Notes under the pieces: model-generated
What the model was told of the DNA's origin: nothing
The model's input: only the letters and a program-made list of their open reading frames with translations
The model's database searches: none
Origin: Gemmatimonadaceae bacterium
GTDB taxonomy: Bacteria; Gemmatimonadota; Gemmatimonadetes; Gemmatimonadales; Gemmatimonadaceae
Direction of reading: 5' to 3'
NCBI GenBank assembly: GCA_039924785.1
Contig: JBDTAE010000164.1
Coordinates: 4,101-68,100, forward strand
Length of the DNA stretch: 64,000 bases
Translations under genes and position numbers: made by a program
Shown: positions 128 through 62,975 of the stretch, piece by piece
How positions within the stretch are numbered: the first letter of the stretch is position 1
Layout: each line of letters starts with the position of its first letter

Positions 128-416
128 CTGGCGGTCAGATTAGCCGCGAATTTCGTACGCTGGCGGTGCGTTTAGCCGCGAATGTCGCCGACACCGGGGG
201 CGGAGAACCGCGGAAAGAACACAAAACCTCTGATGAACGTCCGCCGTCTCAGTCAGAAATGATGAAATAACGAACTTCGGCGCGCCGAGAGGGCACTTTC
301 TTAGTTCTTACAGCACTCCGTGGTGTTCCACGGAACCCGCGGAATGCCGCGGAATAAAACCAGAAAGAGAATCCGTGCTTTTCGCAGTTTCATTTCCGCG
401 GAGTTTCCGCGGCTAA
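128..416. repeat. Intergenic repeat island of the CCGCGGAA / TTAGCCGCGAAT family
   Basis: Two ~32-bp tandem units (128-159 and 160-191, about 24/32 identical), each with CTGGCGGT and TTAGCCGCGAAT. CCGCGGAA at 208, 337, 347, plus variant CCACGGAA at 328. Inverted TTCCGCGG at 394 and 405. CCGCGGCTAA at 407-416 is the reverse complement of TTAGCCGCGG. No ORF of 60 aa or more lies in 1-428. Confidence 0.8.
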
Positions 417-2680: not shown

Positions 2681-3427
2681 ATGGCCTATTCTCCAGACGA
2701 TTCGTATAGCTCCAACACCGGATTGATGCCCGACGCAGAACTGGTGCTGATCATCGACGATGAGCCGCAGATTCGTCGTGCTGTTCGTGACGCGCTCCGC
2801 GACGTCACGGCGCGCGTCGACGAGGCGGCGAACGGCTCGGCGGGAATCGAGTCGGCCACGACTGGCCGGCCGGATCTCGTCGTGCTGGATCTCGGGCTGC
2901 CCGATATGGCCGGTGTCGACGTCTGTCGCGAAATCCGGCAGCGGTCCGCGGTGCCGATCATCGTGCTGTCGGCGAGACATTCGGAGCACGAAAAAGTTGA
3001 TCTTCTGAACGCGGGGGCCGACGACTACGTCACGAAGCCCTTCAGCGTGCTCGAACTTGCGGCGCGCGCGCGGGCGCAGATTCGCCGCGCCAAGACGCTG
3101 GCTGCCGCGACGAGCAGCATGGCTCCGGTGACGATCGGCGGCCTGCTCGTAGATAGCGTGACGCGAAAAGTCACCCGTAACGGGATCCAGCTTCATTTGA
3201 CCCCGATCGAGTGGCAGATTCTCGCCACGTTGATTTCGTCCGCCGGCCGCACGCTCACGCACCAGCAGATTTTTGACGCGGTGTGGGGACGGCAGTTCGG
3301 GAGTCCGCAGCAGTATCTCCGTGTCCACATAACGAACTTGCGTCGCAAAATCGAACTCGATCCGGCGGCACCGCAGATCATCATCACCGAGCCGGGCGTC
3401 GGATACCGCGCCGAGCTTTCGACCTAG
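2681..3427 (+). CDS. OmpR/KdpE-family response regulator
   Basis: Receiver domain (LIIDDE..., DLVVLDLGLPDMAG, KPF) followed by a winged-helix output (LTPIEWQIL...GVGYR). The start could instead be the Met at about 2726. Confidence 0.9.
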   Translation: MAYSPDDSYSSNTGLMPDAELVLIIDDEPQIRRAVRDALRDVTARVDEAANGSAGIESATTGRPDLVVLDLGLPDMAGVDVCREIRQRSAVPIIVLSARHSEHEKVDLLNAGADDYVTKPFSVLELAARARAQIRRAKTLAAATSSMAPVTIGGLLVDSVTRKVTRNGIQLHLTPIEWQILATLISSAGRTLTHQQIFDAVWGRQFGSPQQYLRVHITNLRRKIELDPAAPQIIITEPGVGYRAELST

Positions 3428-3431
3428 CCGT

Positions 3432-4991
3432 GTGAACTGGCGCGCCGTCATCACGTGGCTGGGTTGGATCTCCATCATGGCGGTCGCGACCGTCGTCATG
3501 TTTCAGATCCGCGCTACGATCGACCAGGTTCACGTCGTCCTGGTCTACCTGCTCATCGTGCTCGGCGCGAGCGCGACGAGTGGCCGCCTGCTGGCGATCT
3601 CGCTCGCGTGCACCGGGTACCTGCTGATCGACTATTACTTTCAGCGGCCCTACGGCAGTCTGATCAACGACAAGCCCGTCGATCTGATGGCGCTCGCGGC
3701 GTTTCTCGTCACTGCGATCGTTGCGACAAACTTGCTCGTGCGCGCGCAGACGCAGGCCGAGGAGGCCAAGCGGCGCGCTATTGAAATTGGTTCGCTCGCG
3801 CGGCTCGGGTCGGAGACCCTCAGCATTGGCCGCGCCGAAGACGCGCTGGCGCGAATTGCCACCGTGATCGGCACCACGCTTGGCATGGAGGACTGCTCGA
3901 TCGTCGCGTGGAACGCCGACACCGGCTTCGGGGCGTCGGCGCGCAGTCGCGCGAGCGACAACCCGGCGATCGCCGATCCGCTGACGCGCACGGTGGTCGA
4001 GCAGCCCGGTTGGACCTGGGTGCGTCCGTCGGGCGCGATGGTGCGCGTGGTCCCCGGCGACTCGCGCGAGCGACCGCCGGCGCCGGCGGACGAAATTAAG
4101 AAGTTGCTCATTCCACTTTCGGTGCAGAATCGCGTCGTCGGCGTGCTGCGGCTCGAAGCGGTGACGCCGGTGCGGCTGGCAGCGGCGCAGCGGCGCTTTC
4201 TCGAAGCGATCACGTTTTACGCAGCCCTCGCGGTCGATCGCGTGCGACTGGTGGCCGAAGCCGAGCATGCGGAGGCGTTGCGTGAGGCGGATCGGCTGAA
4301 GGACATCGTGCTGGCGTCAGTGTCGCACGATTTGCGCACGCCGCTGACGACGATCAAGGCACTCGCGCAGAGCGAGGCGATGCAAGGAAACAAGTCGGCC
4401 GGCGCGATCGAAGAGCAGGCCGACCGACTCACGCGACTCGTAAGCGATCTGCTCGACCTTTCCCGTCTCAAAGGCGGCGGTTTTGCGGTCACGCCCGAGC
4501 TCAACACGGCAGAAGACCTCATCGGAGCCGCGGTGCGACAGACGCGGGGTCTGTTTGCCGACCGCGCGTTACGCACGGTGATCGATCTCGATAGTCCGGC
4601 GCTGATCGGACGATTCGACTTCTCTCAATCGCTTCGCGTGCTCTGCAATCTGCTCGAGAATGCGGTGCGCTACTCACGCGGCAAACCGGTGGAGCTTGCT
4701 GCGTGCCGAGAGGGCGATATGCTGGTGTTCAACGTGTCCGATTTTGGTCCGGGCGTTCGCGAGGAGGACCTCGCGCGCATCTTCGAGCCGTTCTTTCGCA
4801 CGTCCAACAGCGCGCCTGACACCGGTCGCGCGGGGCTTGGCCTTTCGATCGCGAGGACGCTTGCGGACATGCAGGGCGGGTCGGTCCGGTACAACCCACG
4901 CGTCGGCGGTGGCAGCGTTTTCAGTCTTCGGCTGCCGGCGACCGAACTCGGTGCCGACGCACTCGAGCAGACCGCGGACGGGCATTCCTGA
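3432..4991 (+). CDS. Sensor histidine kinase, KdpD C-terminal-like (DUF4118 membrane domain + GAF + HisKA + HATPase)
   Basis: GTG start 5 nt after the regulator stop. Four-TM N-terminus typical of DUF4118. H-box SVSHDLRTPLTTI. N/G boxes NLLENAVRY, DFGPGV, GLGLSIAR. It lacks the N-terminal KdpD/Usp sensor module. Confidence 0.85.
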   Translation: MNWRAVITWLGWISIMAVATVVMFQIRATIDQVHVVLVYLLIVLGASATSGRLLAISLACTGYLLIDYYFQRPYGSLINDKPVDLMALAAFLVTAIVATNLLVRAQTQAEEAKRRAIEIGSLARLGSETLSIGRAEDALARIATVIGTTLGMEDCSIVAWNADTGFGASARSRASDNPAIADPLTRTVVEQPGWTWVRPSGAMVRVVPGDSRERPPAPADEIKKLLIPLSVQNRVVGVLRLEAVTPVRLAAAQRRFLEAITFYAALAVDRVRLVAEAEHAEALREADRLKDIVLASVSHDLRTPLTTIKALAQSEAMQGNKSAGAIEEQADRLTRLVSDLLDLSRLKGGGFAVTPELNTAEDLIGAAVRQTRGLFADRALRTVIDLDSPALIGRFDFSQSLRVLCNLLENAVRYSRGKPVELAACREGDMLVFNVSDFGPGVREEDLARIFEPFFRTSNSAPDTGRAGLGLSIARTLADMQGGSVRYNPRVGGGSVFSLRLPATELGADALEQTADGHS

Positions 4992-41094: not shown

Positions 41095-42165
41095 ATGCGC
41101 TCTCTTCCGTATCAGTTCGCCGTCGCCTGCACCGGTGCCTCGATCGCTCTCGCGCCGGTCCGCGCCCAAGAGTCCGTTCCAGAGATCAAATTCGACGCAA
41201 ATGTGAGCTTGCTTAAGATGCCGAACGGCGTACACCTGGGCGAAGTCGCCGGCGTCGCGACCAATTCGAAGCACCACATCTTCGTATTCGTCCGCAGCGG
41301 GGAGCGCACGACGGTGCATGGTGCGACGGCGGCGCAATTATTTGAGTTCGGGCCGGACGGTACCTACCTCCGAGAAATCGGCCAGAACCTGTACGGGTTT
41401 GCCTTCGCGCACACCGTGCGCATCGACAAGGATGACAACATCTGGGCCACGGACGAAGGCACGAACATGGTCATCAAGTTCAATCCCGCCGGGCACGTGA
41501 CGATGGTGCTTGGAAGAAAGGAGGAGGCCGTCGAGCCGGCGTCTGCTGCGCCTCCGGGCGGCGCGCGACCGCAGTGGGGCGGATTCAATCGACCGACCGA
41601 CGTTACGTGGGACACGCAGGGCAACATCTTCATCGCCGACGGCTACAACAATTCGCGCGTCGTAAAGGTCGATCCGAACGGCCGATGGGTGAAGACGTGG
41701 GGAACGCGGGGCACGGAACCGGGGCAATTCAACATCTTGCATAGCATTGCCGCGGATGCGAAGGGGAACATTTATGTTGGCGACCGCACCAACCGCCGCA
41801 TTCAGGTGTTCGACAACAACGGGACGTTTCTCAAGCAATACACCATCGATGTTCCCTTCACGAAGCCGGTGAACGTGATGCTCGGCGCCGATCCATCGAC
41901 TGGAAATCCACTGGGTGTGTCCGGCGCGCCCTGGGCGATCTGCATCAATCCCGGCGCATCACAGTTTTTGTACGTGGCCGACGCAGTGCCGGGTCGCATC
42001 TACAAGCTCACGCTTGACGGCAAAGTCGTAGGTGTGCTGGGTGAGGCGGGGAAGGAGCCGAAGCAGTTCGGTTGGATTCACGAGATCGCGTGCCCGTCGG
42101 AGAACGAACTTTATGTCGCCGAGTTGCTGAATTGGAGAATGCAGAAGCTCGTCCTGCATCCTTAG
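41095..42165 (+). CDS. Secreted NHL-repeat beta-propeller protein
   Basis: ATG at 41095, signal peptide ...ALAPVRAQ. Repeated blocks (DKDDNIWATDEG, QGNIFIADGYNNSRVVKVD, GNIYVGDRTNRRIQVFD, LYVADAVPGRIYKL, LYVAELLNWRMQK). Confidence 0.8.
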   Translation: MRSLPYQFAVACTGASIALAPVRAQESVPEIKFDANVSLLKMPNGVHLGEVAGVATNSKHHIFVFVRSGERTTVHGATAAQLFEFGPDGTYLREIGQNLYGFAFAHTVRIDKDDNIWATDEGTNMVIKFNPAGHVTMVLGRKEEAVEPASAAPPGGARPQWGGFNRPTDVTWDTQGNIFIADGYNNSRVVKVDPNGRWVKTWGTRGTEPGQFNILHSIAADAKGNIYVGDRTNRRIQVFDNNGTFLKQYTIDVPFTKPVNVMLGADPSTGNPLGVSGAPWAICINPGASQFLYVADAVPGRIYKLTLDGKVVGVLGEAGKEPKQFGWIHEIACPSENELYVAELLNWRMQKLVLHP

Positions 42166-42204
42166 GACACGGGTCGGCGATAACCTAGCACAAGGAAGAT
42201 CTAC

Positions 42205-42267
42205 GGCGGAATCCGCGGATTCCCGCGGAATGATCCGCGTGGTTCGTGGACTCAGCGGGCTCCGCGG
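42205..42267. repeat. CCGCGGAA-family repeat cluster with a perfect 16-bp palindrome
   Basis: GGAATCCGCGGATTCC at 42208-42223 is a perfect palindrome. CCGCGGAA at 42223, TCCGCGTGG at 42234, TCCGCGG at 42261. It lies immediately upstream of the TldD/PmbA remnant. Confidence 0.85.
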
Positions 42268-42270
42268 CAA

Positions 42271-42680
42271 ATGCTGATCATGAACACCACGTCGACAGGC
42301 TGGACTTCCGCCGGCATTCTCTCGCCACCGACCCTCAGAAAATGTCTTCATCATGACACAGCGTCGTCTGGCGGAACGAAGAGTACCGAAGAACTCATCG
42401 CTGGATGCCGGCGCGGCATTCTCGTCACGCACTTCTTCTACATTCGCTTCCTCGATCAACGAACCATTTTGCCGACCGGCCTCACGCGCGACGGCACGTT
42501 CCTCATCGAGAAGTGCCAGGTCACGCAGGCGGTGAAGAATTCCGATGGAGCGAAAGTCCGCTGTGTCTGATCAGCAAGATCTAAGAACTCGGTCGCGCGG
42601 AGCGGACGGCGACGGGTCAGATGATGCCGGCGATTCGCGCGAAGAACTTCAATCTCTCTTCACCGTCGGACGCCGTTTAG
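42271..42680 (+). pseudogene. 5'-truncated, frameshifted and nonsense-interrupted TldD/PmbA-family metalloprotease remnant
   Basis: Only the C-terminal part is present: GGTKSTEELIAG..RGILVTHFFYIRFLDQRTILPTGLTRDGTFLIEK.QVTQAVKN. It continues in the -1 frame as FRWSESPLCLISKI-TAA(42582)-ELGRAERTATGQMMPAIRAKNFNLSSPSDAV-TAG(42678). The shift lies at the TT run near 42539-42541. Confidence 0.7.
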
Positions 42681-42741
42681 CATCCGCTCATTGTGCCGTC
42701 GCTTCGGCGAGCCGATGAGAACTCTTGACCGCGAGCGACAG

Positions 42742-44325
42742 CTACGGTTTGCAGTTCGGGTACCACACGGGCGTGAATCCATCGGCGAGCAATCGCACCA
42801 CGCTGATGCCGGCGTCGATCACGCCGGCCATGTGATTGAAATCCGCCAGATTGACATCATCGTTCGACTGGTGGTAGTCGGCGTGCAGGTCGAACGAGGA
42901 TAGCGTATGCGCCGGAATTCCCATGCGCGCAAACGCGATGTTGTCGCTGCGTGAAAAGAAGCTCTGATCGGGGCGCGGGTCCTTCACGATTGGCAGTCCG
43001 TGCGCGGCGAGCGTGTCGCCGAGGGTCGAGCGCTCGAATCCGGTCAACCATGCTTTCCCCGGCCCGCCCGCGAGCGCGTCGGGACGATCCATCATCTCGA
43101 TCTCGAGGTTGGCGGCCATCTGCGAGAGCGGACGAACCGGATGCGCGATGTACCAATTGGTGCCGAGCAGACCGACTTCCTCGCCGGTCGTCGCGATGAG
43201 GACGACAGTGCGCTTGGGCGGCGGTCCAGCCTTGAGCGCGCGCGCGATCTCGATCACGGCGGTCGTCCCCGAGGCATCGTCGTCCGCGCCGTTGTAGATC
43301 GAGTCAGTCGAGCCGGCGGGCGGCATAGCGATGCCGAGGTGGTCGTAATGCGCGTCGACGAGAATCACTTGGTTCTTCATCGTCGGATCCGATCCCTCGA
43401 CAATACCGACGACGTTGCCGCCGGTCGCCGGCCGCTCGACGAACTTTACAGAACTATGAATCGTTTTTCCGGCGGCGCCCTTCGCGAGGCCCGTGATCGG
43501 CGCGCCGAGCAGAACCGTTGCCGCGTGCGAGGTGATCGATACCGTGGCAGCCGCAGGCGCCATGGTCGGCGCGGGTGCCGACGGATCCTTCACGAACGCC
43601 GTCCCCGTGTGCTTCGCCCCCCACACCGTGCGCGCCGACAGCTGGTCGCCTTCAATTGTCGCAATACCGGCGGCGTCAGCAAACGCGTTGTTGCCGCCCA
43701 GCCCACCACGTCCGCCGCGACCACCACCGCCGCCGCCGCCGCGCGGAGCCGCAACAACCGGCGCGGCATCCGCCGGAAGATCCCGGCAGCTTGTTGGCGC
43801 TGGCGGTCGGCCGCCACCGCCAGCCGCGCCACCTCCGCGCGCGCCCGTCGCTATCGGTGCCGCGGAAAAGATGACAAGCTTGCCGCGAACCTGATCGGGC
43901 GTGAGAGGATCAGGGTCATTCCGCATTCCGCCGTAAATCACGGCGACGCCGTCAAGCGAGCGCGGTTTCACGCGGCCGGCCGTCACGGCGAAGTCCGATC
44001 CCGCGCGCAGCGTCGTTCCGTCGACGGTAATCGTCGATGAGGGATCGGTCATGCGCGTTGCCATTGGGACGTGCTGAAAAAATCCGCTGTCGCCAGCGGG
44101 CGTCAGACCCGCGGCTTGGAATTGCGACGCGATGAACTTTGCTGCGCGCATCGAACCGCGCGTTCCAGTGCCGCGACCTTCCATGGAATCGTGCGCGAGC
44201 GCCGTGAGAATGAATTTTATGTGGTCGGGTGTGGCGACCGACTTGGTTGATTGCGCGCTCAGAACGTTCGCGCTGAGAGTGAGACCGAGCGCGGCTGCAG
44301 TGCGCAAGAGAGCTGGTGGTTTCAT
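42742..44325 (-). CDS. Secreted M28-family aminopeptidase with PA domain and Gly/Arg-rich insert
   Basis: ATG at 44325, signal peptide. M28 blocks (VDAHYDHLG, GADDDASGTTAVIEIAR, TGEEVGLLGT, ...HQSNDD). Insert RGGGAAGGGGRPP...PRGGGGGGGRGGRGGLGG. Confidence 0.85.
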   Translation of the reverse strand: MKPPALLRTAAALGLTLSANVLSAQSTKSVATPDHIKFILTALAHDSMEGRGTGTRGSMRAAKFIASQFQAAGLTPAGDSGFFQHVPMATRMTDPSSTITVDGTTLRAGSDFAVTAGRVKPRSLDGVAVIYGGMRNDPDPLTPDQVRGKLVIFSAAPIATGARGGGAAGGGGRPPAPTSCRDLPADAAPVVAAPRGGGGGGGRGGRGGLGGNNAFADAAGIATIEGDQLSARTVWGAKHTGTAFVKDPSAPAPTMAPAAATVSITSHAATVLLGAPITGLAKGAAGKTIHSSVKFVERPATGGNVVGIVEGSDPTMKNQVILVDAHYDHLGIAMPPAGSTDSIYNGADDDASGTTAVIEIARALKAGPPPKRTVVLIATTGEEVGLLGTNWYIAHPVRPLSQMAANLEIEMMDRPDALAGGPGKAWLTGFERSTLGDTLAAHGLPIVKDPRPDQSFFSRSDNIAFARMGIPAHTLSSFDLHADYHQSNDDVNLADFNHMAGVIDAGISVVRLLADGFTPVWYPNCKP

Positions 44326-44426
44326 GCGTCGATGATGCACGGTGGACGTGGCAAGATCAATGGCTGGACATGCGGGCGGTCGCGAGAGAGCTTCTTCGAT
44401 CCTCAACCTTCGAGAATATCGCCCTC

Positions 44427-62707: not shown

Positions 62708-62883
62708 GCTGGCGGCGAGATCAGCCGCGGAGTCCGCGGAATTGTGAACGGCGAAACTCCGCGGATGCAGGAGATTCGTGCACCCCGACTAATTGTTTAC
62801 CCGGCGGCGAGTGCCGGCAAGTTAGCCGCGGAATCCGCTGAGCCCGCGGAACACCGCGGAACACCGCGGAACACCGCGGAATG
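62708..62883. repeat. CCGCGGAA-family repeat island including a 10-bp-phased tandem array
   Basis: GCTGGCGGCGAGATCAGCCGCGGAGTCCGCGGAA at 62708-62741 is homologous to 127-150. CCGCGGA at 62759. TTAGCCGCGGAA at 62822-62833. CCGCGGAACA x3 plus CCGCGGAATG at 62844-62883, with starts at 62844, 62854, 62864 and 62874. Confidence 0.9.
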
Positions 62884-62975
62884 AGTTGGTCGGCCCGATC
62901 GACGGTAACTCGGCGCGGAACTTGGGCTCTTTTGCCGCCGGAGTTGACTGGCGTTCGCCACAGTCCCGCAAATGC

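Follow-up and report, generated by a model that had tools for sequence, protein, structure and literature searches.

Short repeats that keep company with a particular gene are known from two published systems. Repetitive extragenic palindromic (REP) sequences and REPINs occur with REP-associated tyrosine transposase (RAYT) genes, and REPs favour convergent and tandem over divergent spacers (Di Nocera et al. 2013, PMC3733652). The Ssn GIY-YIG nucleases occur with NTS/SRM repeats, which stand on either side of the gene in 42% of the homologues (Chenal et al. 2025, PMC11893778); the Ssn nuclease binds its repeat and cuts single-stranded DNA there (PMC11893778). Another family of small proteins, PF13366 (GxxExxY), is very common in prokaryotes, is described as of "unknown" function with multiple transfers between Bacteria and Archaea, and is included in a survey of PD-(D/E)XK proteins (PMC3424549). 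Our literature search found no paper that contains the arm sequences described below, nor one that links PF13366 or GxxExxY to flanking repeats. We analysed a stretch of 64,000 nucleotides (G000:C164:4101-68100, hereafter the window) from G000, a soil Gemmatimonadaceae draft genome of 4.94 Mb in 371 contigs, with 62.9% G+C and 95% completeness. Its positions 42203-42277 hold a compact head-to-head doublet of two repeat arms, and arms of the same design are dispersed through the genome and frame a GxxExxY gene.

Each arm consists of 3-6 tandem units of 9-10 bp behind a 4-nt tag, TTWG. Like REPs and REPINs, the arms are short, GC-rich extragenic repeats with a 4-nt tag, many of which form inverted doublets, mostly downstream of genes and between tandem or convergent open reading frames (ORFs), and a single-copy gene is flanked by the genome-dispersed repeat. 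The framed gene in REP/REPIN systems is a Y1 HUH transposase, whereas here it encodes a 127-aa PD-(D/E)XK protein (GxxExxY, PF13366) with no RAYT; a REP is also a single imperfect palindrome of 20-40 bp tagged GTAG or CGTC, and not a tandem array. The Ssn/NTS system is similar in that the gene of a small nuclease lies between copies of a hairpin repeat that is dispersed in tens to hundreds of copies, and in that it recurs across phyla. However, Ssn is a GIY-YIG protein and NTS a single ~30-bp hairpin, while here a putative nuclease of the PD-(D/E)XK superfamily is combined with tandem arrays. Miniature inverted-repeat transposable elements (MITEs) and foldback elements, with terminal inverted repeats of short tandem subrepeats, are likewise non-coding, with inverted arms, a variable middle, a patchy distribution and the habit of expanding spacers; they differ in that here no target-site duplication was seen, no parent insertion sequence (IS) or transposase was found, and single arms are duplicated alone. 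Judged by anatomy, the arm family resembles REP/RAYT and Ssn/NTS, yet it belongs to neither.

The palindrome and the doublet at 42203-42277

The starting point was an earlier note on the window that drew attention to a perfect 16-bp palindrome, GGAATCCGCGGATTCC, and to related motifs beside it. Reading the sequence directly confirmed the palindrome and its neighbours, CCGCGGAA at 42223-42230, TCCGCGTG at 42234-42241 and TCCGCGGC at 42261-42268. The palindrome spans the end of one unit, the whole of the next and the start of a third. It occurs at 1 site in the 4.94-Mb genome and differs by a single A-to-T change from the tandem junction of the family, GGAATCCGCGGAATCC, which is present at 5 genomic sites.

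Plain motif counts were not above chance. With at most 1 mismatch, ATCCGCGGA matched 33 times in the window against 42 expected, which is no enrichment, and the 16-mer with at most 3 mismatches matched 3 times against 0.87 expected, a count reached by 6 of 100 shuffles. The palindrome is therefore a weak observation if taken alone, and the signal sits in the phased tandem units. Because the unit core CCGCGG is self-complementary, a single substitution where two tandem units meet, or a switch of strand inside the core, yields a palindrome; GGAAT-CCGCGG-AATCC would have become GGAAT-CCGCGG-ATTCC by one of these two routes.

The earlier note had offered the palindrome as an operator for a homodimeric regulator. 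A perfect 16-bp dyad is in keeping with a transcription factor of this kind, but this one is found nowhere else in the genome, which the earlier note had itself named as grounds for refutation. It is placed 3' of a stop codon and in front of a dead gene, has no promoter consensus around it and is fully explained as a one-base variant of the tandem junction. We find the operator hardly credible.

The minus-strand arm of the doublet is full length and reads, as its reverse complement, CAGCATTTG, CCGCGGAGC, CCGCTGAGT, CCACGAACC, ACGCGGAT. Similar compact doublets were observed on C31 and C83 of G000. The doublet can fold into an imperfect hairpin that is modestly more stable than shuffled sequences (z of -1.5 as RNA and -2.2 as DNA). 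No terminator-like site was found in 41900-42900; there is no U-tract, and the T run is on the 5' side of the arm. Across the whole window, no Rfam family matched at gathering score. Taken together with the genome-wide picture below, the palindrome is probably an incidental by-product of a repeat made of tandem units, and the doublet a gene-less member of the GxxExxY-associated arm family.

That the window holds three clusters of one repeat family, as the earlier note had it, was borne out by profile matches at all three, with the support coming from phased units and not from motif counts. The other two clusters, at ~320-412 and 62720-62885, are built of tandem CCGCGGAA(T/C) with a period of 9-10 bp (Table 1). 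The triple 10-bp repeat inside one arm of the third cluster occupies 62852-62885, and arrays of this kind vary in copy number like minisatellites. Within 130-215, two copies of TTAGCCGCGAAT(T/G)TCG, at ~141 and 173, lie directly past the stop codon of the upstream gene and look like decayed arms; they resemble the sub-type TTAGCCGCGGAWTTCGCGGA of C225, C235 and C236.

Table 1. Coordinates of arms, genes and other features in the window
Feature	Position	Strand	Details
Plus-strand arm of the doublet	42203..42233	+	three units (CTAC-GGCGGAAT, CCGCGGATT, C-CCGCGGAA), degenerate leader; nhmmer 42206-42238, E 9.4e-4, profile positions 24-56
Minus-strand arm of the doublet	42228..42277	-	full length, four units; nhmmer 42275-42228, E 6.5e-6, profile positions 5-53
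Perfect palindrome GGAATCCGCGGATTCC	42208..42223		1 genomic site vs 5 for GGAATCCGCGGAATCC
Cluster 1 plus-strand arm	327..357	+	CCACGGAAC, CCGCGGAAT, GCCGCGGAA; nhmmer E 2.4e-4
Cluster 1 minus-strand arm	394..412	-	short, two units (TTTCCGCGGAGTTTCCGCGGCTAATC); convergent pair with 327-357
Cluster 3 two-unit plus-strand arm	62720..62742	+	CAG, CCGCGGAGT, CCGCGGAA; nhmmer E 0.027
Cluster 3 expanded plus-strand arm	62819..62885	+	six units, including three copies of the 10-bp CCGCGGAACA; nhmmer E 8.9e-12
NHL-repeat exported protein gene	41095..42165	+	ORF; matches (E <= 0.001) in 30/30 other genus genomes, orthologues listed for most
Spacer past the doublet	42278..42363		about 86-88 bp; by blastn no likeness to the repeat family, pmbA orthologues or the rest of the genome
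3' remnant of PmbA-like gene (second of a tldD/pmbA pair)	42364..42681	+	residues 368-470 of 470; frameshift near 42540; in-frame TAA 42582-42584
M28 peptidase gene	42742..44406	-	convergent with the NHL gene; in G008 directly after the NHL gene, 77-bp spacer

A dispersed arm family and the GxxExxY gene that it frames

Genome-wide chaining of tandem units, followed by a fixed-register search, gave 35 seeds of one common design. A profile hidden Markov model was made from 34 of them, one mis-registered seed being left out, and run against the whole genome with nhmmer; arms were counted at E < 1e-2. The consensus arm is about 40-45 bp long and consists of a TTWG leader followed by CCRCGGAAT, CCGCKGAAY, CCGCGGAAT and ACCRCGGAA. 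The leader is T-rich and ends in G (TTTG, TTAG or TTGG), and the fourth unit is offset by 10 bp, so that a search with strict 9-9-9 spacing misses arms. The profile found 56 arms at 35 loci, all of them intergenic. At 16 of the 35 loci the arms form a convergent pair, a plus-strand arm and then a minus-strand arm with the leaders outward, at an inner distance of -10 to 443 bp. Between paired arms the DNA differs from locus to locus, and much of it is rich in A or T and low in complexity. When all loci were compared against each other by BLAST, likeness stopped at the arm ends, except in two compact doublets, and the repeated module is therefore the arm itself and not the whole element.

The genes on either side of the arms are far more often convergent or tandem than divergent. 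Among arms with a gene no more than 100 bp away on their leader side, the gene turns its 3' end to the arm in 14 of 17 cases, with crude gene calls anchored on stop codons only. The arms are mostly found 8-60 bp past stop codons with the leader end toward the gene, and the doublet in the window fits this rule, its plus-strand arm beginning 38 bp 3' of the stop codon of the NHL-repeat gene.

This placement is what would be expected if the arms were REP-like elements that serve the host as 3'-end stabilisers, pause or termination sites, or sites for nucleoid proteins or gyrase, with the GxxExxY gene described next merely sharing a spacer with them or being regulated by them. The preference for convergent and tandem spacers, as for REPs (PMC3733652), and the ability of tandem CCGCGG cores to pair with each other also fit. 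Against such a role, neither a U-tract nor a terminator consensus was found and the fold z-scores are modest; the distribution is patchy even in one genus, so no conserved host role is evident; and the GxxExxY paralogues are each framed by a unit type of their own, a pattern that mere sharing of a spacer would not explain. A host role would in any case be compatible with a selfish origin. We consider it unlikely that service to the host explains the family.

One locus, G000:C328:3135-3627, is a ~490-bp cassette in which arms at 3135-3187 (+) and 3573-3627 (-) enclose a gene at 3194-3574. The plus-strand arm ends 7 bp ahead of the start codon, and the minus-strand arm overlaps the stop codon and is nearly identical to gene-less arms on C7 and C326. 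The ORF encodes 127 aa and belongs to PF13366/TIGR04256, "GxxExxY protein". The AlphaFold model has a mean predicted local distance difference test score (pLDDT) of 91.7, and its best structural matches are Cas4 SSO0001, lambda exonuclease, MGME1 and the Hjc resolvase; the modelled fold is that of a PD-(D/E)XK protein. Across 30 relatives, G28xxE31xxY34, D70 and K82 are invariant and E80 is nearly so.

The other two PF13366 genes of G000 are accompanied by ACGGAC-type units. The second (G000:C148:7700-8300) apparently lacks its N-terminus, and an ACGGAC-type inverted arm is located right at the start of the open frame. The third (C96:7310-7639) has an ACGGAC-type doublet on its upstream side only.

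The inverted doublets, their position between genes and downstream of them, and a 4-nt leader (TTAG or TTTG) reminiscent of the GTAG tag could suggest a REP/REPIN family mobilised by a RAYT (Y1 HUH) transposase. However, the Pfam family Y1_Tnp (PF01797) is absent from G000, G004, G012, a Marinobacter metagenome-assembled genome (MAG; G047) and a Halobacteriales MAG (G049); among the 6 repeat-bearing genomes it was found in Tamilnaduibacter only, while 6 of 14 control genomes were positive. Moreover, the gene that the arms frame encodes a PD-(D/E)XK protein and not a Y1 protein. Mobilisation by a RAYT is highly improbable on this evidence.

The earlier note had also thought the family might be mobile in the manner of a MITE. 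Part of this stands, in that the arms are dispersed in intergenic DNA, mostly as inverted pairs, with a patchy distribution, and the corresponding spacers of relatives are 33-100 bp long and empty. The part that did not stand is the classical MITE, that is, a deletion derivative of an IS with a DDE transposase and the same terminal inverted repeats. Inverted terminal arms with a variable interior would suit it, as would a uniform ~250-bp palindromic element with a conserved core in G004, G015 and G012. The earlier note had suggested looking for target-site duplications around the clusters; judged by eye at the compact pairs, none was seen. No arm pair encloses a transposase, the longer intervals holding the GxxExxY gene, a transfer RNA (tRNA) gene or ordinary genes, and the duplicated unit is the arm of about 40-45 bp and not a whole element. 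A classical MITE is thus very improbable.

In G004, G015 and G012 the arms are part of the fully palindromic ~250-bp element just mentioned, which has the conserved core GCGCAACGAGCC...GGGGACTGCCGCTCGGGA... and a central loop present in both orientations. G000 has only two full copies of it (C56:15078-15336 and C236:9959-10249), and G009 carries the same core with arms of another unit type (ACGCGGAT).

Recurrence in relatives and gain or loss between species

Comparisons within the genus covered 31 species genomes (Gemmatimonadaceae MAGs), G000 included, and were made with the arm 18-mer GCCRCGGAATCCRCGGAA at <=1 mismatch and its reversed pattern as a control. Copies were patchily distributed among species: 37 in G004, 34 in G000, 21 in G043, 20 in G012 and <=4 in all others, while the reversed control gave a single match across all 31 genomes. 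A stricter arm pattern had no match in 16 genomes of two other families of the order.

The presence of arms beside the gene was then compared with the relatedness of the encoded protein. The best matches to the C328 protein in the genus are those of G043 (64%), G012 (62%), G021 (58%), G004 (57%), G014 (55%) and G006 (53%). In 5 of these 6 genomes with >=53% identity the same arms are present beside the gene, on both sides in G012, G043 and G004, as one arm in G021 and on one side in G006; in G014, as in G018, degenerate arms are visible by eye. By comparison, none of the 24 best hits at <=52% identity has the same arms beside it. The C328 locus, which we call the master locus, is found in syntenic position with intact arms in the four arm-rich genomes (34, 37, 21 and 20 copies) and in no others. 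The master loci of G000, G012, G043, G004, G014 and G018 are syntenic, and G006 and G021 share a second context. Counting Marinobacter (G047) and Tamilnaduibacter (G048), the gene-plus-arm unit is found in three genomic contexts overall.

These last two genomes came from a scan of ~186,000 species genomes for an arm 19-mer, which returned many chance-like single hits plus clusters in three places: the Marinobacter MAG together with M. daqiaonensis, Tamilnaduibacter salinus DSM 28688, and the Halobacteriales MAG. The 18-mer was counted 113 times in the Marinobacter MAG, 89 times in Tamilnaduibacter and 29 times in the Halobacteriales MAG, mostly in convergent pairs and with 0 matches for the reversed controls. 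The PF13366 gene between such arms is the only one of the Marinobacter MAG and one of two in Tamilnaduibacter. The CCGCGGAAT arms are an additional unit type in Gemmatimonadaceae, and their 18-mer core is abundant in Gemmatimonadota, Gammaproteobacteria and the Halobacteriales MAG.

Several arrangements outside Gemmatimonadota were recorded in passing. The Halobacteriales MAG (L117) has two compact doublets 1.5 kb apart, with a HicB-like gene and an msrA gene between them. In T. salinus, L070:2898-3621 holds a convergent arm pair and an inner GCCACGGAA-type pair around a complete tRNA-Asp gene with a TTGACA/TATAAT promoter, which indicates that arm pairs can bracket ordinary cellular genes. 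In Marinobacter and Tamilnaduibacter (L053, L089, L095), two unit types are nested within a single element of 130-200 bp, with GCCGCGGAAT arms on the outside and GCCACGGA(A/C) arms on the inside, and the inner unit type also frames the second Tamilnaduibacter GxxExxY gene (L169).

Other PF13366 genes in arm-bearing genomes have inverted arrays of different 9-10-bp units on their flanks. These are CGCGGATTA, CNGCAGAT, CATCGGTG and CACGAATT units in the Halobacteriales MAG, GCGCAGATT in G004, GGTCGCAAR in G012 and CACGGAAA at the second Tamilnaduibacter gene. Relatives of the C328 protein at 49-53% identity, which occur in other phyla and include one from a Phycisphaerae genome, have GCCGCGGAT or GCCACGGAT units.

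Gain and loss of arms can be seen as presence/absence differences between species when orthologous spacers are aligned. The C328 spacer was compared in 14 species: between the conserved flanking genes it is ~707 bp long in G000, while it is ~100 bp and free of repeats in G023, G045, G017, G005, G019 and G024. The spacer of window cluster 3, between convergent genes, is 522 bp in G000 vs 33 bp in G005 and G017. At both of these loci the gene order around the arms is conserved. The same master-locus spacer also holds unrelated hairpin elements on the same plan in other species, with GGTCTCAGG units in G001/G011 and GTGCCAAACGRCGG units in G003/G042, and in G006 an NTS/SRM-like GTCATTCCGAGCGCAGCGAGGAATC element. 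At the level of strains, metagenome contigs scanned with an exact 29-mer for filled or empty alleles gave no match, and neither did exact-protein look-ups of the NHL and C328 proteins.

A mechanism that would account for these patterns takes the arms as sites recognised by the GxxExxY nuclease of the gene-bearing C328 cassette. The nuclease would cut extruded hairpins or single-stranded DNA, with repair copying to follow; arms and doublets that lack the gene would be derivatives of a non-autonomous kind, which nuclease action spreads or maintains, and they would last at sites that tolerate them, chiefly a short way 3' of genes. We rate recognition of the arms by the C328 nuclease as an evenly balanced proposition. 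That such recognition drives the spread of the arms is a more tentative suggestion, which we regard as doubtful.

A number of results weigh against this mechanism. Because the master loci are syntenic, the gene-arm association within the genus represents about two independent events, not six. Between the two phyla, the proteins with flanking arms share 37-46% identity and do not resolve as a single clade; they lie within one unresolved region of the tree, which neither shows nor excludes a single origin across phyla. In the Halobacteriales MAG, which has 29 arms, 0 of 7 PF13366 genes has the CCGCGGAAT unit type, and G015 has one element and no close orthologue of the C328 protein; either arms can persist without their cognate gene or these MAGs are incomplete. 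The drift of unit types among relatives at 49-53% identity means that unit type and protein correspond no more than coarsely. Finally, the lack of visible target-site duplications at compact pairs counts on the same side, as do the modest fold z-scores of the hairpin in the window.

The pmbA fragment beside the doublet and the meaning of the arms

The 576-bp spacer between the NHL-repeat and M28 peptidase genes (42166-42741) is an expansion that holds both the doublet and a stranded gene fragment. In a tblastn search with a 470-aa PmbA-like protein, residues 368-424 matched 42370-42540 at 81% identity, and residues 423-470 matched past the frameshift at 58%, with one in-frame TAA. At the DNA level, blastn similarity of 78-79% to the orthologues of G009, G012 and G002 covers 42364-42681 and ends at the stop codon. 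The remnant thus comprises the last 103 of 470 residues, and the loss amounts to 78% of the protein, more than the N-terminal two-thirds given in the earlier note. The same note had placed the end of the repeat cluster 4 bp before the first residue of the remnant. We found instead that the ATG at 42271 merely opens a frame; DNA homology starts at 42364 and protein homology at 42370, about 86-88 bp past the arm end at ~42277.

An intact tldD/pmbA pair is present in G009, G012 and G002. G000 has three other intact pairs (C68, C286 and C95), in which pmbA is 49-54% and tldD 57-60% identical to the G009 pair. Since the remnant has 81% amino acid identity, it is the true orthologue and the three pairs are paralogues, and with these remaining, the function may well have outlasted the fourth pair. 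Comparison with relatives that keep the intact pair, which had been proposed as a way to map the breakpoint, showed the pair at this site in none of those examined, beside neither the NHL nor the M28 gene. Decay of tldD/pmbA in situ was rejected on this ground. The next gene past the NHL orthologue, after a spacer of <=12 bp, encodes a molybdenum hydroxylase in G009 and a GNAT/nucleotidyltransferase in G012. The M28 peptidase gene of G008 begins 77 bp beyond the NHL gene, and the interval holds an ordinary hairpin but no repeat. The neighbours of the G009 tldD/pmbA pair map to other small contigs of G000.

The earlier note had seen the cluster as the possible scar of a repeat-mediated deletion, and on that account recombination or breakage at the repeats would have removed tldD and the first 78% of pmbA, leaving the doublet to mark the spot. 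The doublet is indeed atypical, with a three-unit plus-strand arm and degenerate leader overlapping a four-unit minus-strand arm, which could be the appearance of a fusion product; the remnant represents the true orthologue within a pair otherwise lost from G000 (81% vs 49-54%), and on neither side does it have the neighbour found in G009 and G002. However, some 90 bp of unrelated sequence separate the breakpoint at 42364 from the arm end, tldD/pmbA adjoins the NHL or M28 gene in no relative, and synteny is kept at both other arm loci compared. The direct adjacency of the NHL and M28 genes in G008 suggests that the fragment was brought in and not left behind. We judge a deletion scar improbable. 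The most plausible reading is that the doublet and the pmbA fragment merely share a spacer that is dispensable and has expanded, neither being the cause of the other.

A bolder account would make the CCGCGGAAT arms specific recognition and cleavage sites of the GxxExxY nuclease, and arms and gene together a self-propagating, unpublished element that crossed between Gemmatimonadota, Gammaproteobacteria and haloarchaea, with a nuclease break at the doublet repaired by means of a captured pmbA 3' fragment. This combination is speculative and, in our view, quite unlikely to hold as a whole; if it did, such elements would also shuffle gene fragments.

For annotation, the arms account for many of the "mysterious" GC-rich palindromes and expanded spacers in Gemmatimonadaceae MAGs. 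For the protein family, one GxxExxY (PF13366) member is tied to a defined and easily synthesised DNA site of four 9-bp units with about 50 genomic copies, and near-identical copies occur in three phyla. This offers a direct biochemical handle on GxxExxY nuclease function. If these proteins are site-specific like the GIY-YIG Ssn nucleases, they would constitute a set of small nucleases whose specificities may be read from their own flanks.

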